DNA from: Candidatus Omnitrophota bacterium
Lineage (GTDB): Bacteria > Omnitrophota > Gorgyraeia > Gygaellales > Profunditerraquicolaceae
DNA length: 64,000 nucleotides
Direction: 5' to 3'
NCBI GenBank assembly: GCA_028716965.1
Contig: JAQUOV010000007.1
Span: 58,795-122,794, forward strand
Shown: positions 6,876-63,979 of the stretch, piece after piece
Numbering within the stretch: position 1 is the stretch's first letter
Layout: each line of letters begins with the position of its first letter
The notes under the pieces: generated by a model
Databases searched by the model: none
Seen by the model: the letters and a program-made list of their open reading frames with translations, nothing else
What the model was told of the DNA's origin: nothing
Made by a program: the position numbers and the translations under genes

Positions 6876-6912
6876 AGAATCCCGACAATTTCTGTTGGGA
6901 TTTCTTTTTGTA
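6876..6912 (+). terminator. Putative intrinsic terminator
   Basis: Hairpin gaatcccgacaatttctgttgggatttc followed by a T-run. Confidence 0.4.
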
Positions 6913-6932
6913 GTGCTATAATATAAACCAAT

Positions 6933-8150
6933 ATGGAGAAATTCCCGCGCAATTTCCTTTGGGGCGCTTCGACTTCAGCGCATCAGGTTGAAGGTAATAA
7001 TCTTTATAATGACTGGTGGCTTGCTGAGCAGTCCGGCGCCTTGAAAGAAGCTTCAAACCAGGCATGCCGGCATTATGAACTTTATGCCGCAGATTTCGCA
7101 ATCGCCAAAGAGCTGGAGCATAATTGCCACCGGTTTTCAATTGAATGGAGCCGTATTGAGCCGCAGGAGGGCTTATTCCGGGATTCCGAGATCAAGCATT
7201 ACCGTAAGGTTATTGCGGAGTTAAAGAATCTGGGGATTGAGCCGGTAGTTACCTTGCATCATTTCACCAGCCCCGCATGGTTTAGCCAAAGGGGCGGTTG
7301 GGCCAAGCCCAAACTGCAAAGATATTTCTTGCGTTTTGTAGAAAAGGTGGTTCAAGAATTCTCCGGAGATATAAAATTTTGGGTAACCATCAACGAGCCG
7401 CTGGTTTACTCTTCGCATTCTTATCTATTAGGCGTATGGCCGCCCAAGGAACGCTCTTTATTTAAGGCTGTCCAGGTTACCTTAAACATGGCCAAGGCGC
7501 ATATCCAGGCTTACCGCATCATACATAAAATTTACCAGGAGAAGAATTTAAGCAGGCCGATGGTCAGTATTGCAGCTAATTTACAGGCATTTGAGATCTG
7601 CCGGCCGACACTAAAAAACAAACTGGCAGCCTACCTGCGGCATAAACTATACAACCTTTATTTTATCGAATTGCTCCTGCGCAAGAAGACCCTGGATTAC
7701 ATCGGGGTAAATTATTACAGCAGGAACCTGGTGGACGTGGAAAACTGGCGGCTAAGGAGTTTATTGGTGGATACTTGCAAACATAACCATCACCCTTTGC
7801 GCAAGAATTCTTTGGGCTGGGATATTTATCCGCAGGGGCTGTATAAACTTCTTATTTCCCTTAAGCAGTACAACCTGCCCGTTTTAATCACCGAAAACGG
7901 GATATGCACCGAAGATGATGATTTGAGATGGGATTATATGCGTACGCATCTGGAACAACTGCATAACTCTATGCGGGAAGGGGTAAATGTCTTAGGGTAT
8001 ATTTACTGGTCGTTGATCGATAACTTCGAATGGGATAAAGGCTTTGTCCCGCGTTTCGGCCTGGTGGATATAAATTACCCCGAACAAAAACGCACGATCA
8101 GGCCAAGCGCAAGAAAGCTTGCCGCAGTCTTTAAGAGTGGTATGATTTAA
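6933..8150 (+). CDS. GH1 family beta-glucosidase
   Basis: N-terminal FLWGASTSAHQVEGN. Catalytic TINEP (acid/base) and ITENG (nucleophile) motifs. Confidence 0.85.
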   Translation: MEKFPRNFLWGASTSAHQVEGNNLYNDWWLAEQSGALKEASNQACRHYELYAADFAIAKELEHNCHRFSIEWSRIEPQEGLFRDSEIKHYRKVIAELKNLGIEPVVTLHHFTSPAWFSQRGGWAKPKLQRYFLRFVEKVVQEFSGDIKFWVTINEPLVYSSHSYLLGVWPPKERSLFKAVQVTLNMAKAHIQAYRIIHKIYQEKNLSRPMVSIAANLQAFEICRPTLKNKLAAYLRHKLYNLYFIELLLRKKTLDYIGVNYYSRNLVDVENWRLRSLLVDTCKHNHHPLRKNSLGWDIYPQGLYKLLISLKQYNLPVLITENGICTEDDDLRWDYMRTHLEQLHNSMREGVNVLGYIYWSLIDNFEWDKGFVPRFGLVDINYPEQKRTIRPSARKLAAVFKSGMI

Positions 8151-8151
8151 G

Positions 8152-10164
8152 ATGAATCCAAAGGATAAAGAGTTTATTATCAGAGAGCTGCTATTTTTTG
8201 CCGGCCTTAACAGGAGGGAGCTGGCAATAATCAAGGCACGATCCCAGGTCGTTGAGTACCATAAGGGTCAGGTTATTTACGAAGAAAAATCAGGACCCAG
8301 CGCTTTTTATTGCATTATCTCGGGCAGGGTGCAGATTTATACTACTGATAAAGAAGGACGGCAGGTGATCCTGGAGTATCTGCACCGCGGAAAATATTTC
8401 GGGATCATCTCCTTGCTTACCAATGAGCCGCATTCGGTGACCAGTATTGCGATGAATGATTGCGTGATCCTGGTAATTAATAAAAATGATTTTGATTTTG
8501 TGTTAAAGAATATCCCCCGCCTGGCAATTGATTTAAGCCGGACATTAAGCCGCAGGCTTAAGCGTAAAGATATCCACCAGAAAATAATATTTGAAAGTAC
8601 GGTTGTCTCCGTCTTCAGCTCCTACGCTCATGCGGGGAAGACCGTCTATGCCTTAAATCTTGCGCTTAGCCTCAGCCGTGAGACGCGAAAATCGGTGATT
8701 ATCCTGGATATATTGCCTCAGGATAAGATGCATACCCTGCCGGATAAGCTGGAATTAACCCCGCCGCCGGTATTTGACCTGTCTTCTTCCGCTGAGATAT
8801 ATCTCTTCCCTAAAGATTATATCGCAAAGAGCAGATTCAGCGTAGAGCTGTGCTGTTTTTATTACCAGCAGGATAATGACACCTGCCTGAAAAGGTTAAT
8901 TGAGATATTGAGCCTCTTGGTTAATGATTACCACTATATCATTTTGGATCTTCCGGCAGCCATGGATCGTTCCATTATCAGCATGCTTAACCAGTCTGAC
9001 ATAATCCATATATTAAGCAGCCCGGATCCGGTGGACCTAAAGCGCACGAATAACCTGATTACCCGGCTTAAAACTGATTTTAATTTTGACCCCCATAAAA
9101 TAAAGACCATTGTTAATGAATATAAATTAGCCAAGATTGACTATAGCTGTCAGCTTAAGATCCTGGACCAGGAGATCTTTGCCACTATCCCCAAGATTAA
9201 GTTTGATTCCGGAGAGCGTTTAATTATTGATGAACCGGACTGCGAATATTCCAAGGCAGTCAGGAGGATCGCCCGGCAGCTGGGGGACTGTCTGGTAGGT
9301 TTAGTTTTGGGGGTTGGCGTAGGATATGGATTCTGCCATATAGGGGTACTGAAGGTCATTGAAGAAGAAAAGATCCCTATTGATATAATCGCCGGTTCAA
9401 GCATCGGTTCGCTCATTGCCAGCCTCTGGGCTATCGGCAAGAGCAGCCAGGAGATCCTGGAGATTACAAGTAAATTCAGACAGCCAAAGCACATCTGGGC
9501 CTTGATCGATATAACTTTCCCGCGGCTCGGTTTTATTAAAGGCAATAAACTGCGCCGTTTTTTGAAGAAGCATTTTGGGGATAAGACTTTCTATGATGTG
9601 AGGCTTCCTTTAAAGATTATTGCCAGTGACGTGCACAAGAAGGAACCGAGGATCCTGGATAAGGGCCTGCTGGTTGATGCTATAATGGCCAGCTGTTCCA
9701 TGCCGGGAGTATTTACGCCTTTTAAATTCAAAGAAGATGTTCTTTTTGACGGGGGGGTGACCAACCCTTTGCCCACTGAGTCTTTAATGCAGATAGGGGT
9801 AAAGAAGATCATTGCCGTAAACGTTACTCCTTCACGGGAGGATATCGTAAGGCAACTGGTGAAACTTAAGGAGGACGTCCTCCCCGGGCAGGCCGTTTCT
9901 GCCCAAAAAAATAAACCCCTTAACTGGCTTGGCAGGCTGAAGAACATTTTTAAACTTAATATCGTAGATATCATTTTCAGCAGCGTGGAAGTCTTGCAGT
10001 CAGAGGTAGCCAGGCGTGAAGGTGAACTGGCGGATATTGTTTTGCACCCGGATACCGCAGGTTTGTTTTGGCTGGAACTGCACAGAGCTGATGAATTCGC
10101 CAGGCGCGGGGAGATTGAGGCAAGAAATAACTTGGATAAAATCTGGCAACTGGTTAACGAATAG
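8152..10164 (+). CDS. Cyclic-nucleotide-binding domain / degenerate ParA-MinD-like domain / patatin-like phospholipase fusion protein
   Basis: N-terminus has a CAP/Crp-type cNMP-binding fold (FFAGLNRRELAII...GKYFGIISLL). The middle region resembles a P-loop NTPase but the Walker A is degenerate (SSYAHAGKT). The C-terminus is patatin: GxGxxG (GLVLGVGVGYG), GxSxG (GSSIG) and DGG (FDGGVTN). Confidence 0.75.
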   Translation: MNPKDKEFIIRELLFFAGLNRRELAIIKARSQVVEYHKGQVIYEEKSGPSAFYCIISGRVQIYTTDKEGRQVILEYLHRGKYFGIISLLTNEPHSVTSIAMNDCVILVINKNDFDFVLKNIPRLAIDLSRTLSRRLKRKDIHQKIIFESTVVSVFSSYAHAGKTVYALNLALSLSRETRKSVIILDILPQDKMHTLPDKLELTPPPVFDLSSSAEIYLFPKDYIAKSRFSVELCCFYYQQDNDTCLKRLIEILSLLVNDYHYIILDLPAAMDRSIISMLNQSDIIHILSSPDPVDLKRTNNLITRLKTDFNFDPHKIKTIVNEYKLAKIDYSCQLKILDQEIFATIPKIKFDSGERLIIDEPDCEYSKAVRRIARQLGDCLVGLVLGVGVGYGFCHIGVLKVIEEEKIPIDIIAGSSIGSLIASLWAIGKSSQEILEITSKFRQPKHIWALIDITFPRLGFIKGNKLRRFLKKHFGDKTFYDVRLPLKIIASDVHKKEPRILDKGLLVDAIMASCSMPGVFTPFKFKEDVLFDGGVTNPLPTESLMQIGVKKIIAVNVTPSREDIVRQLVKLKEDVLPGQAVSAQKNKPLNWLGRLKNIFKLNIVDIIFSSVEVLQSEVARREGELADIVLHPDTAGLFWLELHRADEFARRGEIEARNNLDKIWQLVNE

Positions 10165-11005: not shown

Positions 11006-11239
11006 ATGCCATACGATAGCAGTTTAGACGCGCAGGTATTCAGCCGTTTTTGGGAGAATGACAGCGGCAAGATCGTGGTCAGTGTTTATTCATACAATAA
11101 CGGGCCGCGCAAGATACAGATTGTAAGGGAGATAAAGGATAGAAATGGTGAATATGCCTTTGCCAAATTGGGCAGGTTAACTAAAGAGGAGGCTGAAGGG
11201 GTTTTGCCGTTAATCCAGGAATCTCTGAAGAATATGTAA
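11006..11239 (+). CDS. Small PC4/YdbC-like ssDNA-binding family protein (tentative)
   Basis: 77 aa. The pattern KIVVSVYSYNNGPRKIQIVREIKDRNGEYAFAKLGRLTKEEA resembles the bacterial PC4-like fold (beta-strand core, KG..L). RBS aaggagg upstream. Confidence 0.4.
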   Translation: MPYDSSLDAQVFSRFWENDSGKIVVSVYSYNNGPRKIQIVREIKDRNGEYAFAKLGRLTKEEAEGVLPLIQESLKNM

Positions 11240-14059: not shown

Positions 14060-15274
14060 ATGAAGAGGGTTAGATTTATAAGTTTACAAGAGAAACTATC
14101 AAGAATTATCTTCTCAAGGTATTTCCGTTTAGGGTTAATCGTTTCCGGTTTTATCTGCCTTGTGCTTTTAAGGCAATCCTCAAAAACCTTCGGTGTTTCT
14201 TTAGGGTACATATATATTATCTTGATCTCGTTAAGCGGGATGTGGTTTGGCTTAAGAGGGGGGATCATCTCGGCATTATTTGCCGCAGCTATATTCCTCA
14301 TCGAGGTAGAGCTTTATCTGTTTTGGCCGGCCAGGGACCTGGTCCTGAAAGGCTCGCTTTTTAGGCTGGCTGTTTATTTCCTGAGCGGGATTATTTTAGG
14401 GTATGTTTCAGAATTGCAAAACAAATTAAGCCAGGAGATAAAATACCTGGCTTACCATGATAAACTTACCGGTTGCGTAAATTACACCTGGATAGTTGAA
14501 TTCCTGGAAAAAGAAATCGCCCGCTCCCGGCGTTTTATAAAAGAATTCTCCATAATCCTGATTGATATTGACCATTTTAAGTCAATAAACGATACATACG
14601 GCCACCTTGTTGGAAATGACGCTCTGGCAGCCTTTGCAAATGTTATAAAAGCTAATTTAAGGAATATGGATATAGTAGGCAGGTACGGGGGTGAAGAGTT
14701 CTTGATCATCCTGCCCGAACTTGGTTCAAACGCAGCCCTGGAGGTCCTGGAGAGGATTAGAAGCAAGCTTTCCGAAGCCAGGATAACTTCCCGCCACTTA
14801 AGAGAAGGTATAGGTATATCTTTGCAATTCAGCGCCGGTGTTGCTTCTTTCCCCTATAACGCAAATAATGCTAATGATCTAATCAAGCTGGCCGATGATG
14901 TGCTTTACCAGGCTAAACAAAAAGGAAGGGGCAGGGTCATCGTAGAGTTGAGGAGATGTGTCAGGCTTAAGCCCCATAAAGGGCTAGGAGTAGAGCTGTC
15001 TGGCTTAGTAGATAAAGGGAAGATAAAGATTATAAGGCTGGAGAATATTTCCGAACGCGGAATGTCCTTCCTTTCTCTGCATGATTTTCCGGATAAGGAG
15101 CTCTTGTGCCGTTTTTCTTTGCCCGGGCAGGAGCTTACCTCAGAGTTTACCTGCAGGGTTGCCCATAAAAGCAGGCTGGAGCGCGGCGTTTATCGCGTAG
15201 GTATCTATTTTGTAGATCTTCCTGCTCCTATCCGTGGGACATTATTCCATTTTATCCATCAGGCTGAAAATTAG
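14060..15274 (+). CDS. Membrane-anchored diguanylate cyclase (GGDEF, intact GGEEF) with a C-terminal PilZ domain
   Basis: N-terminal TM segments. GGDEF domain with RYGGEEF. C-terminus carries PilZ RxxxR (RRCVR) and D/NxSxGG (NISERG). Confidence 0.8.
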   Translation: MKRVRFISLQEKLSRIIFSRYFRLGLIVSGFICLVLLRQSSKTFGVSLGYIYIILISLSGMWFGLRGGIISALFAAAIFLIEVELYLFWPARDLVLKGSLFRLAVYFLSGIILGYVSELQNKLSQEIKYLAYHDKLTGCVNYTWIVEFLEKEIARSRRFIKEFSIILIDIDHFKSINDTYGHLVGNDALAAFANVIKANLRNMDIVGRYGGEEFLIILPELGSNAALEVLERIRSKLSEARITSRHLREGIGISLQFSAGVASFPYNANNANDLIKLADDVLYQAKQKGRGRVIVELRRCVRLKPHKGLGVELSGLVDKGKIKIIRLENISERGMSFLSLHDFPDKELLCRFSLPGQELTSEFTCRVAHKSRLERGVYRVGIYFVDLPAPIRGTLFHFIHQAEN

Positions 15275-29872: not shown

Positions 29873-32536
29873 ATGGAAAAACTTTGGAGTTTTACGGATA
29901 GCTCAGGCAGTTTTTATTCACTCTGCGCGGATAAAATCAAAAGCCTCTATTTCCCTCTCGCCAATGACAGGATTATGTCTTCTCTTACTCCTGATTTACA
30001 CGGGGATATCAAAGGCGGGCAGAGCTCTTTTCTCCTGGCCCCGGTTTCACGCATTGACTTAGCCAACCTGCGGTCTTCGCGTAACTTCTGGATTTATATT
30101 AACGAACGCAAAATCTGGTCGGCTACAGGTGTTTCCAAAGATTCCCGGCAGAGAAAGAGGGATAAATTTAGGTTAGAGGCCGGTCTGCTTTGGCATAAAA
30201 TAAGCCGGCGGAATAAAGCAATAGGCATTAACGCAGAAGTGCTTTCTTTTGTGCCGGCTACGGGTGAGCCGGTTGAGATAATGCAGGTTACGCTTACCAA
30301 TATTTCCCGTAAACCGGTAAGTTTTGTCCCTACTGCCGCCATTCCCATGTACAACCGTCCCGCCAATAATATACGCGACCACCGCCATGTTACCAGTTTG
30401 TTGCAGCGTGTTGTTCTGCATAAATTTGGGGTAATTTCCAGGCCGACATTGGTTTTTGATGAATCCGGACACCGCCCGAATAGAGACAACTATTTTGTCT
30501 TAGGATGGGATGAGAATTCCTTGCCTGCGCAAAGGATCTATCCGACCCAGGATGTTTTTTGCGGTGACTCAGGCGATTTGGAGGAGCCGGAAGCGGTATT
30601 CAAGAATATCTCCCCCCGCTTAAATAATATCCAGGGCAGGGAGGCTATGGGGGCCTTAAGTTTCAGGAGGGCTTCTTTGCGTCCGGGCCAGTCAAAGATA
30701 TATACGGTGATTATGGGATTAACCCAGGAGCCAGGAGAGATTTCAAAATTAATCTCCAAGTTCAACCGTCCGCATAAGGTTTTGCATGCTTTGCAAAAGA
30801 ATAAAATATTCTGGAATAAGCTTAGCGGGGGGGTAAATATCGTAACGCAAGACAGGGATTTTGATAATTGGCTGCGTTGGGTGAATATCCAGCCGGTGTT
30901 AAGGAAGCTCTTTGGTTGTTCTTTCCTCCCGGATTTTGATTACGGGAAAGGAGGCCGCGGATGGCGCGACCTATGGCAGGATTGCCTGGGATTGATTATC
31001 AATGACCCGGAAAAGGTGCGGCCTTTCTTGATTAATAATTTCTGCGGAGTAAAGATTGACGGTTCCAATGCCACTATTATCGGCAAAGCTCCCGGAGAAT
31101 TCATCGCTGACCGCAACAATATCAGCCGGGTATGGATGGACCACGGTATCTGGCCGCTTTTAACGCTGGATTTATATATTAACGAAACCGCAGACTTTAA
31201 GATTTTGTTTGAGCAGGCGACTTATTTTTACAATCATGAAATAAGGCGTACGGCAGGCATTGATTACAACTGGACGCCCGCTTACGGAAATAAGCTAAAG
31301 ACCGGCTGCGGGAAGATTTATTCAGGCTCGATTTTAGAGCATCTTTTGATACAGAACCTGGTGCAGTTTTATAACGTCGGAGCACATAACCATATCCGTC
31401 TTGAAGGCGCTGATTGGAATGATGGATTGGATATGGCGAAAGAAAACGGCGAAAGCGTAGCCTTTAGCGCAATGTACGCGCAAAACCTGGAGACGCTTGC
31501 CGCATTGTTGCTTAAAATCGGCAAGAATAGCAGGATAGAATTAGCTGAAGAGGTCAGGATTTTATTGTCAAAAGTCAATTACGAAAGCGTTTCTTCCAAG
31601 CGTAAACTTTTGGACAGGTATTTCTCTAAAATATCCGTTTCGCTATCCGGGAAAAAGGTTTATTTAGATGCCGCGCAGCTAGCCGCTGACCTTAGGGCCA
31701 AGTCTTGCTGGATGAAGCAGCATATACGTTCAACAGAGTGGCTTAAAGAGGGGTTCTTTAACGGTTATTATGATAACCTCAAAAAGCGATTGGAAGGCAA
31801 AAAGGGCAGGCGTATACAAATGACCCTCACCGCCCAAACATTTGCCGTAATGTCCGGCATTGCCCTGCCCTGGCAGGTGCGCAGGATTTTACAAAATGTG
31901 AATAAGTATCTGTTTGATAAACAAACCGGCAGCATACATCTTAATACTGATTTTAAGCAAGAACAGCCTGAGCTGGGCAGGGCTTTTTCTTTTTCTTATG
32001 GAGAAAAGGAGAATGGGGCGATTTTTAGCCATATGGTTGTAATGTTCAGTTATGCGTTATATAAGCAAGGTTATGCCAGCGATGCATGGAGGTCTTTAAG
32101 CTCTCTTTATAAAATGGCATCGCATACCTCAAGGAGCAAGGTTTATCCCTGCCTGCCGGAATACTTTAACCTGGAAGGCAGGGGGATGTACTCTTATCTG
32201 ACCGGTTCAGCCAGCTGGTTTATCTTGACTATGCTTACCCAGGTTTTTGGGGTTAAGGGGGAGGACGGGGATTTAGTAATTGAGCCCAAATTGAGCGCAG
32301 AGCATTTCCGCAAGAATAATAGTATAAGTATAGAGAGGACCTTTGCCGGCAAGAGAATAAGGGTGAAGTTCCTGGGTTTCGGAAAACCTACCCAAGGCAA
32401 GTATAAGATTATTAAGGCCTGTTTTAATTCAAGGAACCTGCCTATAGATAAGCGTGGCCATCTGGTCTTTAAGCGCGAAGCAATGCTTGTTTTGCCGGCA
32501 GACAGGCTTAACCAGATAGAGGTGCATTTAGCTTAA
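29873..32536 (+). CDS. Large (alpha/alpha)6-barrel glycoside hydrolase/phosphorylase-like protein (GH94-like, tentative)
   Basis: 887 aa. The region LEGADWNDGLD resembles the catalytic acid segment of the cellobiose/chitobiose phosphorylase family. No signal peptide. Confidence 0.45.
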   Translation: MEKLWSFTDSSGSFYSLCADKIKSLYFPLANDRIMSSLTPDLHGDIKGGQSSFLLAPVSRIDLANLRSSRNFWIYINERKIWSATGVSKDSRQRKRDKFRLEAGLLWHKISRRNKAIGINAEVLSFVPATGEPVEIMQVTLTNISRKPVSFVPTAAIPMYNRPANNIRDHRHVTSLLQRVVLHKFGVISRPTLVFDESGHRPNRDNYFVLGWDENSLPAQRIYPTQDVFCGDSGDLEEPEAVFKNISPRLNNIQGREAMGALSFRRASLRPGQSKIYTVIMGLTQEPGEISKLISKFNRPHKVLHALQKNKIFWNKLSGGVNIVTQDRDFDNWLRWVNIQPVLRKLFGCSFLPDFDYGKGGRGWRDLWQDCLGLIINDPEKVRPFLINNFCGVKIDGSNATIIGKAPGEFIADRNNISRVWMDHGIWPLLTLDLYINETADFKILFEQATYFYNHEIRRTAGIDYNWTPAYGNKLKTGCGKIYSGSILEHLLIQNLVQFYNVGAHNHIRLEGADWNDGLDMAKENGESVAFSAMYAQNLETLAALLLKIGKNSRIELAEEVRILLSKVNYESVSSKRKLLDRYFSKISVSLSGKKVYLDAAQLAADLRAKSCWMKQHIRSTEWLKEGFFNGYYDNLKKRLEGKKGRRIQMTLTAQTFAVMSGIALPWQVRRILQNVNKYLFDKQTGSIHLNTDFKQEQPELGRAFSFSYGEKENGAIFSHMVVMFSYALYKQGYASDAWRSLSSLYKMASHTSRSKVYPCLPEYFNLEGRGMYSYLTGSASWFILTMLTQVFGVKGEDGDLVIEPKLSAEHFRKNNSISIERTFAGKRIRVKFLGFGKPTQGKYKIIKACFNSRNLPIDKRGHLVFKREAMLVLPADRLNQIEVHLA

Positions 32537-47935: not shown

Positions 47936-48973
47936 ATGCAAAAAACCCTGAATGAAATAGCCAAGCTTATTGACGGCAAGGTCATCGGCGACGGGGATAT
48001 TCTGATTACCGGTATCTCGGGTATTAAAGAAGCGGCAGAGGGGGATATTACCTTTCTGGCCAATCCCAAATACAGCTCGCTTATGGATAAGACGCATGCT
48101 GCAGCGATCATTACTTCGGCTGAGGCGCAGAAGACCGCCAAGCCGGTAATTCTAACTGAAAACCCCTCCCTGGCCTTTGCCAAGATCATCTCTATGTTTA
48201 TGCCTGATGACGCCGGACATCCCAAGGGCATAGATTATACCGTGGTCATGGGCAAAGATGTAACTTTAGGTAAGGATGTAGCTATAGGGCCTTACACGGT
48301 TATCGGGGATAATGTTTTTATAGGGGATAATACGATAATTCACGCCGGCTGTTTTATCGGCCATCATACAAAAATCGGCAGCCAGACTTTAATTTATCCG
48401 CATGTTTCTATACGCGAGCGCATTAGTATCGGAAACCGTGTGATTATACATTCCGGCACGGTGATCGGTTCAGACGGTTTTGGTTTTGCCACGATTAAGG
48501 GCGCGCATCATAAAATACCCCAGGTAGGTACAGTTGAAATTGCCGATGACGTGGAGATCGGGGCCAATGTTACTATTGACCGGGCGCGTTTTGATAAGAC
48601 CGTAATCGGCAAAGGCACCAAGATAGATAATCTTGTGCAGATTGCCCATAACGTAGTTATCGGCGAAAACTCGTTGGTTGTTGCACAGGTAGGCATATCC
48701 GGCAGCACGATTATCGGCAACAATGTGACTTTAGCCGGCCAGGCTGGTTTGGTCGGCCACATTACCGTCGGAGATAATGCGGTTGTCACCGCGCAATCCG
48801 GAGTGGCTAAGTCCGTGCCTGCTGATAGTATGGTTTCCGGTTATCCGGCCAGGCCGTTTATGGTTACGCAAAGGGCAAATGCCAGCCTGCAAAACCTGCC
48901 TAAATTATTTGAACTGGTAAAAGAATTAAAGAAAAAAGTTGAAGAACTGGAAGCCAGATTAAACAGGAAATAA
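47936..48973 (+). CDS. lpxD: UDP-3-O-acylglucosamine N-acyltransferase LpxD
   Basis: N-terminal LpxD domain plus left-handed beta-helix hexapeptide repeats. Confidence 0.88.
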
Positions 48974-50265
48974 TGGAAAAGCAGAAGACAATCGCCAGCA
49001 AGGTCTCGCTTTCTGGCGTGGGGATACATACGGGAAATAAAGTAAATGTTACCTTTAAACCTGCGCAGGCATCTTCCGGTGTGACTTTTATCCGCACTGA
49101 TATAGCCGGATCTCCCAGAATACAGGCTAATGTACAGTCATTCCTGGCGGCTAAATTCAGCCGCCGCAGTTCAATTGGCAGCAATGAGATAGAGGTGCAG
49201 ACGATTGAACATCTTATGTCTGCTTTAGCCAGCCTGGGGATAGATAATATTGATGTAGAAATAGATAATAACGAGCTGCCGGGGCTGGATGGAAGCGCGC
49301 TTAAATTCGTAGAGGCGATTGAAAAGGCGGGGATAGTTGAGCAGGAGCAGGATAAATATACCCATGTAATCAAAGAGCCCATATGTATTGAAGATGGGGT
49401 TTCCTCCATTACCATTGTGCCATCAAATGAGTTTAAGATATCCTATACCTTAAATTATGACCACCCTTTGTTAAAGGCGCAATTCCTGGAGATCTGCGTT
49501 AATGCGGAATCCTTTAAGGCTGAGATTGCCCCGGCGCGTACTTTTTGCCTTGAGAGCGAGGCATCGGAATTACGAAATCAGGGCTTGGGTTTAGGCGCCA
49601 ATTATGAGAATACGCTGGTCGTAGGAAGGGAAGGGGTAATTAAGAATAAACTGAGATTCAACGATGAGTTTGTCAGGCATAAAATACTTGATTTAATCGG
49701 TGATCTTTGCCTGGCTGGATGCCCTATCCGGGGCCATGTGATCGCATTAAAAAGCGGGCATTCTTTAAATTTAAAGATCGCCCGGAAGATTTATGAACAA
49801 AAAATAAAAGCACAAGGAGCCAAGACTATGGAAGGTGTCTTAGACGTTAATGAAATTATGAAGATTATCCCGCACCGGGAACCTTTTTTGTTTGTGGACC
49901 GGGTAACTCACCTGGAAAAAGGCAAACGTGCGGTAGGAGTCAAAAATGTAACTATAAATGACTATTTTTTTAAAGGCCATTTTCCGGGCCGGCCGGTTAT
50001 GCCGGGTGTAATTATAGTTGAGGCTATGGCGCAGGTAGGTGGGGTAATGATGCTTGCCTCTGAAGAAAATAAAGGGAAGTTGGCCTTCTTTTTGTCCATT
50101 GATAATGTAAAATTCCGCAAGCCGGTAGTCCCGGGCGATCAGTTAGTGCTTGAGGTTGAGGCGATAAAGGTAAAGTCCAAAACAGGCCAGGTGCGCGGCA
50201 GGGCGTTAGTAGACGGTAAAGTGGTTGCGGAAGCAGATTTTGTATGCGCTTTAGTGGGTGATTAA
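48973..50265 (+). CDS. lpxC-fabZ: Bifunctional UDP-3-O-acyl-GlcNAc deacetylase LpxC / 3-hydroxyacyl-ACP dehydratase FabZ fusion
   Basis: N-terminal LpxC (HTGNKV, HKILDLIGD). C-terminal hotdog FabZ (GHFPGRPVMPGV). Confidence 0.88.
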   Translation: MEKQKTIASKVSLSGVGIHTGNKVNVTFKPAQASSGVTFIRTDIAGSPRIQANVQSFLAAKFSRRSSIGSNEIEVQTIEHLMSALASLGIDNIDVEIDNNELPGLDGSALKFVEAIEKAGIVEQEQDKYTHVIKEPICIEDGVSSITIVPSNEFKISYTLNYDHPLLKAQFLEICVNAESFKAEIAPARTFCLESEASELRNQGLGLGANYENTLVVGREGVIKNKLRFNDEFVRHKILDLIGDLCLAGCPIRGHVIALKSGHSLNLKIARKIYEQKIKAQGAKTMEGVLDVNEIMKIIPHREPFLFVDRVTHLEKGKRAVGVKNVTINDYFFKGHFPGRPVMPGVIIVEAMAQVGGVMMLASEENKGKLAFFLSIDNVKFRKPVVPGDQLVLEVEAIKVKSKTGQVRGRALVDGKVVAEADFVCALVGD

Positions 50266-54952: not shown

Positions 54953-56914
54953 ATGAATAAAATAATGAAACCAGGACAATCTGAAAATATGGCATTTAAA
55001 GAACTGAAGGATAAATATCAGTTGCTCAGGGATTTGATGGATTTTATCCCGGATGTCATTTATTTTAAAGATAAAAAAGGCAGGTTTATCATGGTCAACC
55101 AGGCCCATGCTAAGGGCCTGGGGGTAAAACCCGAAGCTTTAGTGGGGAAAACAGATTTTGATCTTTTTTCAAAGAAACGGGCCATGAAGATGACGCAGGA
55201 TGATGCGCGGGTGATGAATACCGGTAAGCCGATAATAGACAAGGTTGAAAGAGCGACCCGGCCGGACGGGGTGGATAATTATGTTTCTACAACCAAGATA
55301 CCGCGCTATGACGAGACGGGCAAGGTCATTGGTTTAATCGGCATTACCAGGGATATTACCCGGCGTATGCAGTTTGAGCGGCTGAGGAAGGATAAAATAA
55401 GCATTGAAAAGAAACTGGAGGCTTTGGAGGAGCTTAGCGCCATGAAGTCAGAGTTTATCTCCACTGTTTCTCATGAGCTGCGCACCCCTTTGGCAGTAAT
55501 CAAACAGCTGGTCACTGTGGTTTTTAATGAGGTCGTCGGCCAGATCAACCATAAGCAGAAGGAGGTGCTTCAGAAAGCATTGGATAACGCTGAGCGCTTA
55601 AGGAAGATTATTGATGATTTGCTGGACATATCGCGCATTGAAAGGAATACCCTTAAATTGCATTATTCCCTGGTGGATATCGTTGACCTGATGAAAGACT
55701 CGGAAGGGTTTTTTATGAAGCTGGCCGAAGAAAAGAATATCCGCCTGAAATATGTTTACCCCGATGAACCGGTCAATGTTTTTATTGATGCCGACAGGAT
55801 AAGGCAGGTGATCTTCAACCTTATCAGCAACGCTATCAAGTTTACCATGGATGGCGGTAAGATCAAGGTAGAGGTAAGGATCCTGGAGGCAAAAGTCAGG
55901 ATAGGGGTTATAGATACCGGTATCGGCATATCCAAAGCAGACCTGCCTTTGATATTCAACAAATTCGCCCAGGCTTCTAATCTTTCTGGAGTTGAAAATA
56001 AAGGCATAGGATTGGGGCTTTCCATATCCAAGAAGCTGATTGAAAGGCACAAGGGGGAGATTTGGGTTGAATCTAAAGCCGGAGTGGGAAGCAAGTTTTA
56101 CTTTACCTTGCGCCGCTTTTATACTCTTGATATGCTGGGTAAGAGCATAAGGGATAAGGTGAGCCGGCTGATGAAGAGCGGGGTCTCCATGCATTTTGTC
56201 AGCCTTTTGATCCTGAATTGCAGCGAATTCAGGAAGAGGATGAAGATCGGCCTGGAGCCATTATTTAAAGATTTGCATACTATCCTCGATATAGTCCTTA
56301 AAAACGCTAAATATGAAGATGCTAATAAGCAGGCGATGTCCGTAATCAACCCTAATGCAGGCAAGTTCAGCATAATCCTGCCCGGGGCATCAAACAGGCA
56401 GGCATCCAATATCTCCGGCATGCTCAAATATAAGATTAAGCAGTATTTTGCCAGTAATAAAGTTGAGGATGTTTTTATAACCTTAGGCTCGCTGTCTTAT
56501 TCCCAGAAAGTTTTCTCGCAGGATGACGGGTTTTCGCCGTCGCGTTTTTCGATTAAGGAAATATATATAGGCTCGGAGATGCGGCGTTTCAAAAGGTTGT
56601 CTTTTAAAACGAATATCAAAATATTCTTGCCTGCGGAAAAAGTTGAGCTATCCGAATCCGTAGATGTTTCCGAGGGCGGGATTTGCCTGGTAATCAAACA
56701 CTTATTAAAGACGGATTCGCAATTAAAGGTAAGTTTTGTTTTTCCGGAAAACAAAGAATTCACTATCGCAGCAAGGGTGCGCGTGGCATGGATAAAAAAG
56801 ATCGAGCTTCTTTTCGGGGAGGATGCCGATAAATATAAAGTGGGGCTGGAGTTTATAAACCTGGAGAATAAATACAGAAAGGTTATTCGCAGAAGATTAA
56901 TGAGTAAATCTTAA
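54953..56914 (+). CDS. PAS sensor histidine kinase with C-terminal PilZ domain
   Basis: PAS domain, HisKA (SHELRTPL), HATPase_c (DTGIGIS...GLGLSISKKLIE). C-terminal PilZ motifs RRFKR and DVSEGG. Confidence 0.75.
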   Translation: MNKIMKPGQSENMAFKELKDKYQLLRDLMDFIPDVIYFKDKKGRFIMVNQAHAKGLGVKPEALVGKTDFDLFSKKRAMKMTQDDARVMNTGKPIIDKVERATRPDGVDNYVSTTKIPRYDETGKVIGLIGITRDITRRMQFERLRKDKISIEKKLEALEELSAMKSEFISTVSHELRTPLAVIKQLVTVVFNEVVGQINHKQKEVLQKALDNAERLRKIIDDLLDISRIERNTLKLHYSLVDIVDLMKDSEGFFMKLAEEKNIRLKYVYPDEPVNVFIDADRIRQVIFNLISNAIKFTMDGGKIKVEVRILEAKVRIGVIDTGIGISKADLPLIFNKFAQASNLSGVENKGIGLGLSISKKLIERHKGEIWVESKAGVGSKFYFTLRRFYTLDMLGKSIRDKVSRLMKSGVSMHFVSLLILNCSEFRKRMKIGLEPLFKDLHTILDIVLKNAKYEDANKQAMSVINPNAGKFSIILPGASNRQASNISGMLKYKIKQYFASNKVEDVFITLGSLSYSQKVFSQDDGFSPSRFSIKEIYIGSEMRRFKRLSFKTNIKIFLPAEKVELSESVDVSEGGICLVIKHLLKTDSQLKVSFVFPENKEFTIAARVRVAWIKKIELLFGEDADKYKVGLEFINLENKYRKVIRRRLMSKS

Positions 56915-61297: not shown

Positions 61298-61315
61298 TTT
61301 TGTAAATCATCTTAT

Positions 61316-61402
61316 GGAGGAGTGGCAGAGTGGTCTAATGCGGCGGTCTTGAAAACCGTTGAAGCCGTAAGGTTTCCGAGGGTTCGAATCCTTCCTCCTC
61401 CG
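61316..61402 (+). tRNA. tRNA-Ser (anticodon TGA), class II long variable arm
   Basis: Acceptor GGAGGAG/CTCCTCC, anticodon arm GCGGT-CTTGAAA-ACCGT, long variable arm, T-arm GAGGGTTCGAATCCTTC. Confidence 0.85.
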
Positions 61403-61426
61403 AAATAAAACGGTATTATTTAAAAA

Positions 61427-61453
61427 GGTGCGGGACGAATCCCAGCCCCACCG
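61427..61453 (+). pseudogene. Degenerate tRNA-like 3' fragment pairing with 61250..61297
   Basis: GGTGCGGGACGAATCCCAGCCCCACCG. The segment CCCCACC pairs with the 5' GGTGGGG, and GGTGCGGGA pairs with TCCCGCACC at 61289..61297. T-loop-like CGAATCC. Confidence 0.35.
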
Positions 61454-61490
61454 TTAATTGCATTGGAAGTTAAGCAGTAAAAAGGCCCAT

Positions 61491-62294
61491 ATGAGCGCAG
61501 CCATTTATTATTTCTCGGCTACCGGTAATTCCCTGATGGTAGCAAGGGATATAGCGTCTGAATTGAAAGAAGCTAAACTTCTGCCTATAACCAAGGCAGC
61601 AGGATCAGGCAGTATTGAGCAGGCTGATATAGTGGGGATTGTTTTTCCGGTGTATATGTTCGGCCTGCCGCTTATTGTGGCGGAGTTTTTGAAAAGACTT
61701 AAAGCTAAGCCCGATGCCTATGTTTTTTCGGTAGCTACGCTTGGCGGATTGCCGGGAAGGGCGCATAGTTTAATCAGGAGTATCCTGGGCGCGCGCGGGA
61801 TTGAGCTGGCATGCGGATTTTCAGTGATGATGCCGGGAAACTATACACCGTTATACGGGGCTATCCCTAAAGAGCAGCAGGAGGGGATGTTTAAGAAGGA
61901 AAAAATAAAGGTTAAGGAGATCGCGCGTTTGGTGACGGAGCGTAAACGCGGCATCTTTGAAGAGAAGCCTTTTCTTGCTAATTTCTTGCTTTATGTCTTG
62001 CTGTATAGGGCAGGTTCCAAACAGATCCCCGGTTCAGCCAAAGGATTTTGGATTACGGATGCCTGTACTAAATGCGGCAGGTGCGCTAAGGTTTGCCCCG
62101 TAGCCAACATAGAGATGAAGGATGGCAGGCCTTTTTGGCTTGCCCACTGCCAGCATTGCATGGCATGTTTGCAGTGGTGCCCCGTAGAAGCTATCCAGTA
62201 TAAGAAGTCCACCCTGGGCAGGGAGCGTTACCGCCATCCCGGTATAAGCGAAGAAGATATCGGCGGGCAGAGGGTTGATCCTCTGAAAATATAA
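61491..62294 (+). CDS. Flavodoxin-like domain protein with C-terminal 2x[4Fe-4S] ferredoxin domain
   Basis: AIYYFSATGNS flavodoxin-like N-terminus. CTKCGRCAKVCP and CQHCMACLQWCP motifs. Start taken at MSAAIYY; the ORF begins at 61458. Confidence 0.6.
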   Translation: MSAAIYYFSATGNSLMVARDIASELKEAKLLPITKAAGSGSIEQADIVGIVFPVYMFGLPLIVAEFLKRLKAKPDAYVFSVATLGGLPGRAHSLIRSILGARGIELACGFSVMMPGNYTPLYGAIPKEQQEGMFKKEKIKVKEIARLVTERKRGIFEEKPFLANFLLYVLLYRAGSKQIPGSAKGFWITDACTKCGRCAKVCPVANIEMKDGRPFWLAHCQHCMACLQWCPVEAIQYKKSTLGRERYRHPGISEEDIGGQRVDPLKI

Positions 62295-62305
62295 ATTGCG
62301 GTCCT

Positions 62306-62393
62306 GGAGAGTTGGCAGAGCTGGTTGAATGCGGCGGTCTCGAAAACCGTTGTCGTCGTAAGATGACCGGAGGTTCGAATCCTCCACTCTCCG
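62306..62393 (+). tRNA. tRNA-Ser (anticodon CGA)
   Basis: Acceptor GGAGAGT/ACTCTCC, anticodon arm GCGGT-CTCGAAA-ACCGT, long variable arm, T-arm GGAGGTTCGAATCCTCC. Confidence 0.85.
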
Positions 62394-62446
62394 TTGAAGT
62401 TTTGCAAACAGCCGATCTTCAGCGGATGCTGTTCCGTGTAAAAATT

Positions 62447-63979
62447 TTATAATAATTTTTGGAGAGGTGCCGGAGTGGTCGAACGGGCGTGTCTGGAGAA
62501 CACGTGAGTCGCAAGGCTCCCAGGGTTCGAATCCCTGCCTCTCCGCCAGTTAGGATAGGGTGCTGCTTCAAAGAGAGGACGGAAGGTACCTTCCGTCGGA
62601 AAATTGAGGCGGCGCTCTTTTAAAATAAAGTTCGAACCAATCTTTTTCAGAAATTCTTTCTGGGATTCTAAATTTCCCTCTTCAATCGCGCAACGGGCTC
62701 TATTCAAAGAGGTTACGAATTCTTTCGCCGGTTCGAACCGATTAGAGCCTACCGCAGCAAAATCCTTTGCAGATTCCTGTAATTTCTTCTTTTCGTTGAT
62801 AAAACTTTCCTTCTTAGCCTGATATTCTTCAAGAGTCAAAGACTCAGCCAGGTACATATCAATTAGCTTGCTTATCTTATCGTCAATCGCCTTAATCTTA
62901 GCGTCCAGATTTTGCTGCGGGAGACCTGATGATTGGACAGCCTCATTCTTGTCCTTAGCAAGCTCATTCAAAATCTTCTCTGTCCAATCATCAGACAAAG
63001 AAACTTTTTGAATGATAGCCCTGACCTGCGCGGCAAGCTCTTCCTCGCGGATATACTTTTGGGAGCAGCGGACTAACCTTTTGGTGCAATGGTAGTAAGT
63101 ATGCCCCTTTTGAACTTCTGCCGTAATTGACCTTCCGCACTCACCGCAGCGCATTAACCCTCTAAGAATAAATCTCTCTTTTTGCGGCTCCTTGTGTTTG
63201 CCGCGCATTCGCATAACTTCTTGGCATCTATCAAAAAGTTTCTTTGTGATAATAGGCTGATGAGTGCCTTCATAGACTTCGCCTTTATAGCGGAATACGC
63301 CGTAATAAAGAGGGTTTTTGAGCATCGTTTGATATTGGCTTATGCTTAGAGGCTTATCTTTTCTACCAGCCATGCCGAGAGGATTTATTTTGTTTCGCAC
63401 CTCTTCTAGTGAATATTCGCCACTAGAGTAAAGCTCAAAAACCCTCTTTATGAAAGGAGCTTTGCCCTCATCAATTATAATCGTGCGTGTCTTGCGGTCG
63501 TTAAGGTAACCGATGGGCGCCCACTGCGGCCAGATTCCTTTGCTTAACTTCAACCTTATCCCTCTGCGTATGTTTTCAGATAAGGCATCTATATAATACT
63601 TGCTCTGGCCGAATACGATAGAGAGCATAAACTTGCCTTGAGCGTTGTTATCAAAGCGTAACGTTGGGAAGCGCAGGTCCTGAATCACCTTTTGATCTAC
63701 GAGGTAAATTATCCGGCCGCCATCAACAGAGTTTCTCGCTAATCTATCGGGATGCCAGGCAAGGATGCCGTCCGCAAGTCCACGCTCAATAGCAAGAATC
63801 ATATCATTGAAGAGTGGGCGCCCGGGCTTCTTGGCGGTCTTGGCTTCGATAATCTCCTTAAGAACAAGAATATTCTCTCGTTGGGCGTATTCTCTTAATT
63901 CCTTAAGCTGTGCTTCGATAGAGAGAACTTGTCTATCCTCGTCATCTGTGGACTTGCGGGCATAAATAAAGTATCTCAT
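62447..63979 (-). CDS. Large serine recombinase (phage-integrase type: resolvase catalytic domain, recombinase domain, zinc ribbon and coiled coil)
   Basis: N-terminus MRYFIYARKSTDDEDRQVLSIEAQ carries the catalytic-Ser motif. A CxxC...C zinc ribbon sits in the middle (RCGECG...YYHC). RBS aaaggag at 63985. The last roughly 35 codons run antisense through tRNA-Ser(GGA). Confidence 0.85.
   Translation of the reverse strand: MRYFIYARKSTDDEDRQVLSIEAQLKELREYAQRENILVLKEIIEAKTAKKPGRPLFNDMILAIERGLADGILAWHPDRLARNSVDGGRIIYLVDQKVIQDLRFPTLRFDNNAQGKFMLSIVFGQSKYYIDALSENIRRGIRLKLSKGIWPQWAPIGYLNDRKTRTIIIDEGKAPFIKRVFELYSSGEYSLEEVRNKINPLGMAGRKDKPLSISQYQTMLKNPLYYGVFRYKGEVYEGTHQPIITKKLFDRCQEVMRMRGKHKEPQKERFILRGLMRCGECGRSITAEVQKGHTYYHCTKRLVRCSQKYIREEELAAQVRAIIQKVSLSDDWTEKILNELAKDKNEAVQSSGLPQQNLDAKIKAIDDKISKLIDMYLAESLTLEEYQAKKESFINEKKKLQESAKDFAAVGSNRFEPAKEFVTSLNRARCAIEEGNLESQKEFLKKIGSNFILKERRLNFPTEGTFRPLFEAAPYPNWRRGRDSNPGSLATHVFSRHARSTTPAPLQKLL
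62461..62548 (+). tRNA. tRNA-Ser (anticodon GGA) with encoded CCA
   Basis: Acceptor GGAGAGG/CCTCTCC, anticodon arm CGTGT-CTGGAGA-ACACG, long variable arm, T-arm CAGGGTTCGAATCCCTG, then GCCA. Confidence 0.85.

Follow-up and report, generated by a model that had tools for sequence, protein, structure and literature searches.

A patatin-family lipase of Omnitrophota that carries a degenerate MinD-fold domain between a non-canonical cyclic-nucleotide-binding-type sensor and the hydrolase

Membrane remodelling, virulence (ExoU, PlpD), defence against phages (CapV) and human disease (PNPLA6/NTE) all involve patatin-like lipases in a central role, and the control of their activity is understood for only a few members. 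In NTE/PNPLA6 and the bacterial 'NTE family' (K07001), one or more N-terminal cyclic-nucleotide-binding-type (CNB) domains are fused to a Ser-Asp patatin esterase, and the Mycobacterium tuberculosis protein Rv2565 was reportedly described by McCue et al. in 2000 as a CNB-patatin protein, a literature search on Rv2565 returning passing mentions only. PNPLA6 has three CNB sites and a patatin domain (PMC9025805). The gene analyzed here, at positions 8152..10164 on the + strand of a 64,000-nucleotide stretch of DNA (the window) from a Candidatus Omnitrophota bacterium, encodes a protein that shares this fusion and differs from the NTE-type proteins by the insertion of a full ~235-aa domain of MinD/ParA fold between sensor and lipase. 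The protein is an undescribed form of sensor- or ligand-regulated patatin lipase whose individual parts are familiar; what is new is that a MinD-fold pseudo-ATPase is an obligatory module, accompanied by changes in the sensor and in the oxyanion loop. Full-text literature searches for the combination of CNB, MinD-like and patatin domains found no describing paper, in agreement with the view of the initial annotation that the middle pseudo-ATPase domain had not been described.

The gene begins with ATG and encodes 670 aa in the list of open reading frames (ORFs). It comprises a CNB sensor domain of the CAP/PKA-R type with a long C-helix (residues 1-141; 8152..8574, + strand), a middle domain (MID) of MinD/ParA fold (residues 148-380; 8593..9291, +), a patatin-like acyl hydrolase domain (PAT; residues 381-560; 9292..9831, +) and a C-terminal helical domain (CTD; residues 561-670; 9832..10161, +). 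A deposited protein from a Candidatus Omnitrophica metagenome-assembled genome (MAG), P0001, is 100% identical to it, and more than 100 Omnitrophota relatives of 667-686 aa match it end to end at 67-90% identity. The ATG at 8152 is supported because these relatives of ~670 aa align over the full length. For the first domain, Pfam reports cNMP_binding (PF00027) at residues 34-119 (E 1e-22, 80.3 bits against a gathering cut-off of 27.5), a sequence search of the PDB matches PKG, PKA-R and CRP, and Foldseek returns template-modelling (TM) scores of 0.7-0.8 to the CNB domains of CRP and PKA-R, as the CAP/Crp-type fold proposed for the N-terminus would predict. The hydrolase is matched by the full Pfam Patatin model (PF01734) at residues 384-545 (E 5e-30, 105.6 bits against a cut-off of 27.7), by PlpD in the PDB sequence search (E 2e-21) and by the PlpD structure 5fya in Foldseek (E 1.5e-16, TM 0.85). 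The three-domain layout of the initial annotation thus stands, with Pfam carrying its two ends and Foldseek its middle. Each solved chain found by Foldseek in the PDB spans at most one of the three domains, with query-normalised TM-scores of at most 0.34.

The middle domain is the part that sequence comparison with single models reaches least. On this segment, Pfam AAA_31 aligns to residues 152-307 with E 1.5e-4 and 22.2 bits, below its cut-off of 27, and CbiA gives E 3e-3 and 17.8 bits, below 25.4; the NCBIfam matches to MinD, ParA and BcsQ are weak (minD_arch 24.8 against a cut-off of 201.75), and none of the curated cut-offs of the AAA_31, CbiA, MinD and ParA models in Pfam and NCBIfam is reached. 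The PDB sequence search finds Soj, ParA and MinD at only E ~4e-3, and a word-index search with the middle domain returns 26 fragments only, all from the same family. From this single protein's sequence alone the fold is suggestive at best, and such sub-threshold matches would also suit a mere linker, or a known N-terminal extension of patatins, with no P-loop fold at all, an alternative that the initial annotation had itself raised. Structure prediction and profile comparison leave that alternative with almost no probability. Two AlphaFold2 models were built, model 1 from 40 close relatives and model 2 from an alignment of 48 divergent relatives (A3). In terms of the predicted local distance difference test (pLDDT), model 1 is confident over residues 20-130 and 150-380 and below 50 in the patatin half, and model 2 has a mean pLDDT of 87 and a predicted TM-score of 0.75. 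Residues 150-380 have a pLDDT of 80-95 and the alternating strand-helix pattern of the ParA/MinD fold. For residues ~148-380, with TM-scores normalised to the target, the Foldseek matches in the PDB are the ParA-family ATPase of Chlorobium tepidum (3ea0; TM 0.71-0.78, E 4e-13), MinD (1hyq, TM 0.78, root-mean-square deviation 3.4; 4v02, TM 0.75) and FlhG (4rz3, TM 0.69). The linker alternative was rejected on these matches together with a profile of the segment that retrieves intact ATPases of the ParA/MinD type at E-values down to 4e-19. The modelling and structure search that had been proposed for this segment thus return a ParA/MinD fold, and in the models the MinD/ParA fold of MID is real.

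The profile also identifies the relatives of MID. Built from 13 MID sequences (A2) and searched against 1.84 billion cluster representatives, it finds 2410 proteins at E <=1e-3, and outside the fusion family it matches proteins of ~370-430 aa at E 1e-13 to 4e-19, which Pfam reads as Response_reg followed by AAA_31/ParA/CbiA. One such receiver and MinD-like protein is in turn fused to an ATPase of the T2SSE/TadA (CpaF) type. The nearest non-fusion relatives of MID appear to have the layout of CpaE/TadZ, a label that follows from their architecture, no NCBIfam equivalog cut-off being reached. As judged from these profile matches, MID is homologous to, and descends from, receiver and MinD-like ATPases of this layout, and the ParA/MinD/CpaE-type fold claimed for the middle segment is upheld. 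In the window protein, as in CpaE/TadZ, the MinD-like domain comes after a regulatory domain of ~140 aa, and the fold itself and the aspartates of switch I and Walker B are shared with CpaE/TadZ and MinD/ParA/FlhG; the window protein differs in that its sensor is a CNB domain and not a receiver and in that the KGGxGK[TS] motif is degenerate. Unlike MinD-type proteins, MID has no C-terminal membrane-targeting helix and runs straight into the patatin domain. Among the window ORFs scanned there are no tad or pilus genes, the neighbours being genes for a glycoside hydrolase of family 1 (GH1), a lipoprotein, MazG and an SNF transporter.

The ATP-binding loop of MID has decayed, as the initial annotation had observed. 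The degenerate deviant Walker A sequence SSYAHAGKT (residues 156-164; 8617..8643, + strand) was located by alignment to the FSxKGGxGK[TS] motif that all intact non-fusion relatives carry, and in the window protein (FSSYAHAGKT) the signature Lys is replaced by Tyr and the two glycines by Ala-His, with GKT kept. The protein thus lacks the signature Lys that defines a deviant Walker A motif, xKGGxxGK[ST]. Family-wide residue counts were made over 48 divergent CNB-MID-PAT proteins, none of which has the canonical KGGxGK[ST] motif. The signature Lys, which an ATP-sandwich dimer requires, is retained in 3/48. The position of the Walker A Lys holds Lys in 15, Arg in 12 and other residues in 21, so that this Lys is dispensable family-wide, and bulky or charged side chains stand in place of both KGG glycines. 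Asp186 of switch I is kept in 36/48 and Asp266 of Walker B in 37/48. MID is also the fastest-evolving part of the protein, with a mean pairwise identity among these members of 26% as compared with 38% for CNB and 48% for PAT, and despite this divergence it is never lost in Omnitrophota. Since the Walker A Lys occurs in 15 and the signature Lys in three of the 48 members while the Ser and Asp of the lipase occur in all 48, the function that maintains MID cannot be dimerisation through a ParA-type ATP sandwich with hydrolysis, and MID would no longer be an ATP-hydrolysing switch.

The suggestion of the initial annotation that the middle module is a non-catalytic scaffold or regulator agrees with the family-wide degeneration of the P-loop, and leaves room for passive nucleotide binding in the window's own clade. 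Within this clade of 67-100% identity, FSSYxxAGKT is conserved and G162, K163, T164, D186 and D266 are invariant or nearly so, the generic xxxxGK[ST] framework is formally present, and the nearest relatives of MID are genuine ATPases. TadZ-type proteins are reported to bind ATP or ADP without hydrolysing it. In the same manner, ATP or ADP at GKT, Asp186 and Asp266 might control dimerisation of the window protein without being hydrolysed and thereby integrate the energy state with the signal from the CNB domain. This is unlikely in view of the wider family, where the Walker A Lys is largely missing, the signature Lys is lost and the KGG glycines have given way to bulky or charged residues, where members that lack the CNB domain also have degenerate P-loops such as SSSFEENKP, and in view of the scores of the window MID, which lie below every curated ATPase cut-off.

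The sensor domain departs from its described relatives in the phosphate-binding cassette FGIISLLTNEPHSV (residues 83-96; 8398..8439, + strand), which the HMMER alignment to PKG/PKA-R pairs with FGERALLYDEPRSA. The cassette reads FGI...PHSV where the canonical form is FGE...PR[ST]A, so that the ribose-binding Glu is replaced by Ile, the phosphate-binding Arg by His (His94) and the next Ala by Val, and neither the FGE Glu nor the R[ST]A Arg of a functional cAMP or cGMP receptor is present. Across the divergent members His occupies the Arg position in 46/48, and the Glu position holds E in 25 and I in 16. Few stretches of the protein are conserved as well as this cassette, and some ligand is therefore probably bound. 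Chloroflexota CNB-patatin proteins that lack MID retain a canonical cassette, FFGEMALL..RRSA, and for this reason the His cassette is a derived signature of the MID-containing family. The C-helix and the basic linker RRLKRKDIHQKIIFES that follow the CNB domain are highly conserved as well, and largely invariant in the window's clade.

The closest parallel to this cassette is found in the PKA-R of kinetoplastids, one structure of which (6h4g) is among the Foldseek matches. In PKA the cassette Arg neutralises the cyclic phosphate of cAMP, and in the kinetoplastid protein its replacement together with an Ala-to-Val change abolishes cAMP binding, nucleosides being bound instead (PMC10959531). The window protein resembles it in the missing Arg and in the Val in place of the next Ala, and differs in the substituting residues, with His where the kinetoplastid protein has Thr or Asn and with Ser at the position of Ala202, where the kinetoplastid protein has an additional Glu. 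These substitutions weaken the proposal of the initial annotation that the enzyme is cyclic-nucleotide-gated. A classical cAMP- or cGMP-gated phospholipase, in which a cyclic mononucleotide held via His94 switches on the patatin domain, would account for the strong Pfam match, for the genuine cyclic-nucleotide-binding domains of PKG and PKA-R among the best PDB sequence matches, for the high conservation of the cassette, which implies a ligand, and for the Glu that about half of the divergent members keep, and it has precedent in bacterial enzymes regulated by cyclic mononucleotides such as Bd1971, a fusion of such a domain with EAL that is itself among the fold matches. Such gating is nevertheless doubtful, given the replacement of the phosphate-neutralising Arg by His in nearly all members and of Glu by Ile and Ala by Val in the window's clade, the derived and apparently selected nature of this change as seen against the RRSA of the Chloroflexota relatives, the cAMP independence that Arg loss with Ala-to-Val confers on kinetoplastid PKA-R, and a scan of ORFs of the window, as distinct from the whole genome, in which no class III cyclase was found. 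The sequence of the sensor is not that of a canonical cAMP/cGMP receptor, and the CNB domain appears to bind a small ligand, classical binding of cAMP or cGMP being improbable.

The hydrolase has the motifs of the RssA (YchK)/PlpD group, of which PlpD is the closest solved structure. The nucleophile elbow GSSIG (residues 415-419; 9394..9408, + strand) contains the catalytic Ser417 and the DGG motif (residues 533-535; 9748..9756, +) the catalytic Asp533, in agreement with the intact GxSxG and DGG motifs of the initial annotation. Loss of this dyad in homologues, which would have spoken against the enzyme, was looked for and not seen among the divergent members, in which Ser and Asp are each present in 48/48, as is the Gly that follows the Asp. 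Ser417 and Asp533 are accordingly predicted to form an active hydrolase. The glycine-rich oxyanion loop GVGVGYG (residues 387-393; 9310..9330, +) retains the glycines of the GxGxxG motif that had been described as intact, and has Tyr where stand-alone relatives have Arg or Lys. This basic position holds L in 18, F in 15, R in six, M in four and Y in two of the divergent members, L, F, M and Y together making up 39/48, as compared with stand-alone RssA-like patatins from a genome scan, which almost always have R or K there (GSGAARG, GGGFARG, GSGGAKG, SSGGARG). In patatin enzymes this basic residue lies at the oxyanion hole, close to the head group of the substrate, and it is generally missing from the neutral-lipid lipases of the PNPLA2/3 type. 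Its loss hints that the substrate may differ from the anionic phospholipids of RssA/PlpD-type enzymes, and because of this loss the label 'phospholipase' is uncertain, although the patatin fold and the motifs of the Ser-Asp dyad are in place.

The C-terminal helical domain is common to RssA-type patatins. The NCBIfam RssA model aligns to residues 382-669 over model positions 6-298 of 301, and a local hidden Markov model (HMM) of the CTD finds it in all full-length relatives and in stand-alone patatins. With 109.5 bits against a cut-off of 272 for the RssA equivalog NF007623, the window protein is not an RssA orthologue. As compared with RssA and PlpD, which share the G-x-S-x-G and D-G-G motifs, it has two extra N-terminal domains and lacks the POTRA domain and beta-barrel of PlpD and the Arg/Lys of the oxyanion loop.

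The order of the domains is conserved well beyond the immediate relatives of the window protein, a point on which the initial annotation had asked for a comparison of homologues. Among the 150 best 50%-identity cluster representatives from the MID-only profile search, local domain HMMs identify at least 47 full CNB-MID-PAT-CTD proteins (~600-750 aa) and many fragments, and the layout also occurs in 18 species-representative genomes. Members 25-37% identical to the window protein (L004-L021 and L027) come, by the taxon labels of the MAGs as deposited, mostly from Candidatus Omnitrophota, with a few from Planctomycetia/Planctomycetales, two from Verrucomicrobiia and one from Vecturithrix; one further representative is from Candidatus Lindowbacteria. 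In a second form, found in Omnitrophota (L022-L026), proteins of ~500 aa consist of MID-PAT-CTD without CNB and begin directly at the first MID strand. Because such CNB-less proteins occur, MID-PAT is the constant core and CNB an add-on sensor. In the third form, which is the CNB-patatin arrangement of Chloroflexota MAGs (L031:4326-6005, L033:5983-7662 and L058:5950-7686), the proteins are ~560 aa long, and a spacer of just ~140 aa, without a significant MID match, separates CNB from PAT-CTD. These proteins keep FGE..RRSA in the cassette and GGARG in the oxyanion loop, as opposed to the window's family, in which the cassette Arg has become His and the basic oxyanion residue is lost. The presence of MID, the loss of the sensor Arg and the loss of the basic oxyanion residue tend to co-occur, imperfectly; Verrucomicrobiia-labelled members, for example, have the His cassette but keep the oxyanion Arg.

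Some variants deserve separate mention. The Chloroflexota spacer has no P-loop, and its beginning resembles that of MID, with a similar first strand and helix (LIAVAG...RLAVSIARLTSERIVLFDL); it may be what is left of a MinD-like domain after further reduction, but even a HMMER comparison without any filters gives no significant match to MID, the best conditional E-value being 0.025 over 31 residues. The homologue at L027:5983-7917, on a 7.3-Mb contig of a Candidatus Vecturithrix MAG, is 25% identical to the window protein, retains the canonical cassette Arg and has TASNTG for GSS[IM]G and DGST for DGG, which suggests that the nucleophile Ser has been replaced by Asn and that the protein is a pseudo-lipase, unless the alignment is off. 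The database proteins P0121 and P0131, which consist of CNB and MID only, derive from interrupted genes: a single frameshift lies inside the patatin N-terminus at L002:3597-5608 and L003:3512-5523 (P0131), and the copy at L084:4001-5941 (P0121) is interrupted by a gap between MID and patatin. Natural two-gene forms were rejected for both, the disrupted copies being pseudogenes or assembly errors.

The best functional clue comes from the gene neighbourhoods of the divergent relatives, where a fatty-acid-releasing lipase would stand beside enzymes of fatty-acid activation and degradation. A thiolase gene lies 7-36 nt downstream of the three-domain gene in five loci (L007, L008, L012, L013 and L019) and nearby in two more (L009 and L016), as confirmed by Pfam; seven divergent loci have a 3-hydroxyacyl-CoA dehydrogenase, and four have an acyl-CoA synthetase of the AMP-binding type. 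Genes for small PilZ-domain proteins are located upstream in about ten of the divergent loci, including L007:657-1052 and L006:3022-3390 (Pfam E 1e-12 and 3e-9), L008 (4 nt upstream) and L017 (39 nt upstream). These could reflect a connection to cyclic di-GMP (c-di-GMP), or merely the abundance of PilZ proteins in Omnitrophota.

The reading that best accommodates these observations, with a probability of roughly 0.5, is that the protein is a cytoplasmic, allosterically regulated patatin-family acyl hydrolase of three modules in which MID acts as scaffold or transducer. The ligand would bind the His-type CNB domain, and the signal would pass via the conserved C-helix and basic linker to the MinD-fold scaffold. 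MID, no longer needing ATP, would act as a structural scaffold for dimerisation or signal transfer, by which the Ser417/Asp533 lipase is positioned or gated, and the lipase would release fatty acids from membrane or storage lipids to feed acyl-CoA synthetase and beta-oxidation. The cytoplasmic location is read from the N-terminus, which appears to be the first CNB helix rather than a signal peptide, with no dedicated signal-peptide or transmembrane prediction behind it. Several points weigh against such a regulated hydrolase. Lipase activity, ligand binding and oligomeric state are all predictions from sequence and models, and the role of MID in dimerisation or signal transfer is suggested by the general behaviour of ParA/MinD folds. 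The window's clade keeps GKT and both Asp residues, and a pure pseudo-ATPase is for this clade an extrapolation from the wider family. A cyclic nucleotide might also be held by an altered chemistry, since His can still form a hydrogen bond to phosphate and the cassette Glu is present in half of the divergent members. The release of fatty acids as physiological role is deduced from the neighbourhoods of divergent relatives, and beta-oxidation genes are absent from the window and from close relatives, which have GH1, lipoprotein and MazG genes there.

A more specific version is unlikely in its full detail. In it, the MinD-fold domain would have turned from an ATP switch into an oligomerisation or gating module operated by a ligand. 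The His-type CNB domain would sense a metabolite other than a classical cyclic nucleotide, e.g., a nucleoside, a nucleotide that is not cyclic or a compound related to CoA, and by way of the basic C-helix and linker would rearrange a pseudo-MinD dimer and thereby open or assemble the patatin sites, coupling lipolysis in Omnitrophota to the capacity for beta-oxidation. If true, patatin lipases would be shown to have a new principle of regulation, and bacterial CNB domains to bind a new class of ligand.

A lipase switched by a nucleotide messenger and controlled through oligomerisation is also the concept behind CapV and CapE, the patatin effectors of the cyclic-oligonucleotide-based anti-phage signalling system (CBASS), and the likeness of the window protein to them is of this conceptual kind. 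In recent structures, effectors of the CapV/CapE type are activated by filament or oligomer formation (PMC12480259; PDB titles). In CapV the nucleotide is bound within the patatin protein itself, which has neither a CNB nor a MinD-like domain and is encoded beside a CD-NTase in defence islands; sequence similarity between the window protein and CapV-type proteins is weak (E 5e-4). An abortive-infection effector of the CBASS or Pycsar type, whose CNB domain would sense a defence cyclic nucleotide and whose patatin domain would destroy the membrane, might be suspected from domain-level PADLOC matches to CBASS phospholipase effectors (E 4e-12) and, for the CNB part, to PycTIR effectors (E 1e-7 to 6e-10), as well as from the Foldseek matches to CapV and CapE (TM 0.55-0.64). 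This possibility is very improbable and was rejected, as the PADLOC matches are at the domain level only, the adjacent genes include neither a cyclase or CD-NTase nor any other gene of defence (PADLOC being silent on the neighbouring genes), and the gene lies within conserved core synteny among tRNA and housekeeping genes. Furthermore, its phylum-wide occurrence at 25-90% identity resembles vertical inheritance, the divergent members adjoin beta-oxidation genes and not defence islands, and the patatin half resembles RssA/PlpD more closely than it does CapV.

The window reads as core chromosome and holds nine tRNA genes. The order of its genes is MnmA, NadA, RluA, UppP, PfkB, a major facilitator superfamily (MFS) transporter, a peptidoglycan (PG)-binding protein, GH1 and the three-domain gene, which is followed by the lipoprotein, MazG, a 77-aa ORF and the SNF transporter. 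Later in the window come tRNA-Phe, a cold-shock protein, a GGDEF protein, the Rnf complex, FtsH, enolase, GH94, GlmU, DnaB, BamA and LpxC-FabZ. The core-genome synteny PfkB-YqeY-MFS-PG_binding-GH1-gene-lipoprotein-MazG-SNF is conserved. Of the neighbours named by the initial annotation, the lipoprotein is supported by an LSGC lipobox in its sequence and MazG by 25.3 bits against a cut-off of 22. The PC4-like label of the 77-aa ORF (11006-11239, + strand) finds no support in Pfam at E <=1, where the only match is one to YtfJ at chance level. At L084, a 78-aa gene occupies the equivalent position before the SNF transporter, a likeness to the 77-aa ORF that is positional.

The upstream GH1 glycosidase gene (6933..8150, + strand; Pfam Glyco_hydro_1, E 1e-85) ends in a TAA stop codon at 8148-8150, one base before the ATG at 8152, and the two genes therefore do not overlap as had been claimed. 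They are likely co-transcribed. The promoter-like site with the best score immediately precedes GH1 (6895-6922), and the junction itself shows no terminator-like site; the site counts do not exceed those in shuffled sequence, which makes this weak evidence. The translational coupling proposed in the initial annotation is possible at this junction through termination and reinitiation, but the distance from GH1 to the gene ranges among loci from -4 to 100 nt, and such coupling is therefore not conserved: there is a 4-nt ATGA overlap at L002/L003, 74 nt at L084 and 100 nt at L001. Adjacency to GH1 is limited to the window's clade (L001-L003 and L084) and L015 and is absent from all other divergent loci. 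With adjacency thus limited and spacing variable, GH1 was rejected as a family-wide functional partner.

Other genes of the window are of interest in their own right. A GGDEF diguanylate cyclase (14060-15274, + strand) is encoded 4 kb downstream of the three-domain gene, and a PAS-histidine kinase with a C-terminal PilZ domain (54953-56914, +) has an unusual sensor-kinase architecture. LpxC (residues 4-274) and a FabA/FabZ-like dehydratase (residues 299-421) are fused in a single ORF (48973-50265, +). The GH94 protein, of the cellobiose/cellodextrin phosphorylase type (29873-32536, +), together with GH1 suggests that this Omnitrophota genome uses beta-glucosides. Within the region 61315-63979, the gene for a large serine recombinase (Resolvase, Recombinase and Zn_ribbon_recom; 62447-63979, - strand) adjoins three tRNA-Ser genes, one of which, tRNA-Ser(gga) at 62461-62548, is overlapped by the 3' end of the recombinase gene; this region, where the window ends, may be the edge of an integrated element.

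The family described here also marks a gap in annotation. Its members are labelled 'patatin-like phospholipase family protein', 'NTE family protein' (the JGI label for the three-domain family) or 'cyclic nucleotide-binding domain-containing protein', precomputed Pfam results list CbiA (PF01656) for only some of them, and in hundreds of entries labelled 'patatin-like phospholipase' or 'NTE family protein' the middle domain mostly goes unnoticed. As a family it is well defined, conserved and widespread in an uncultivated phylum, and experimentally tractable. One bacterial polypeptide here unites a sensor, a decayed MinD/ParA domain and a lipase in compact form, and the family could reveal how the ParA/MinD fold is reused as a non-catalytic scaffold and which ligand is bound by a bacterial CNB domain without the cassette Arg. 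It could also show how the little-known, uncultivated Omnitrophota control their lipid turnover.

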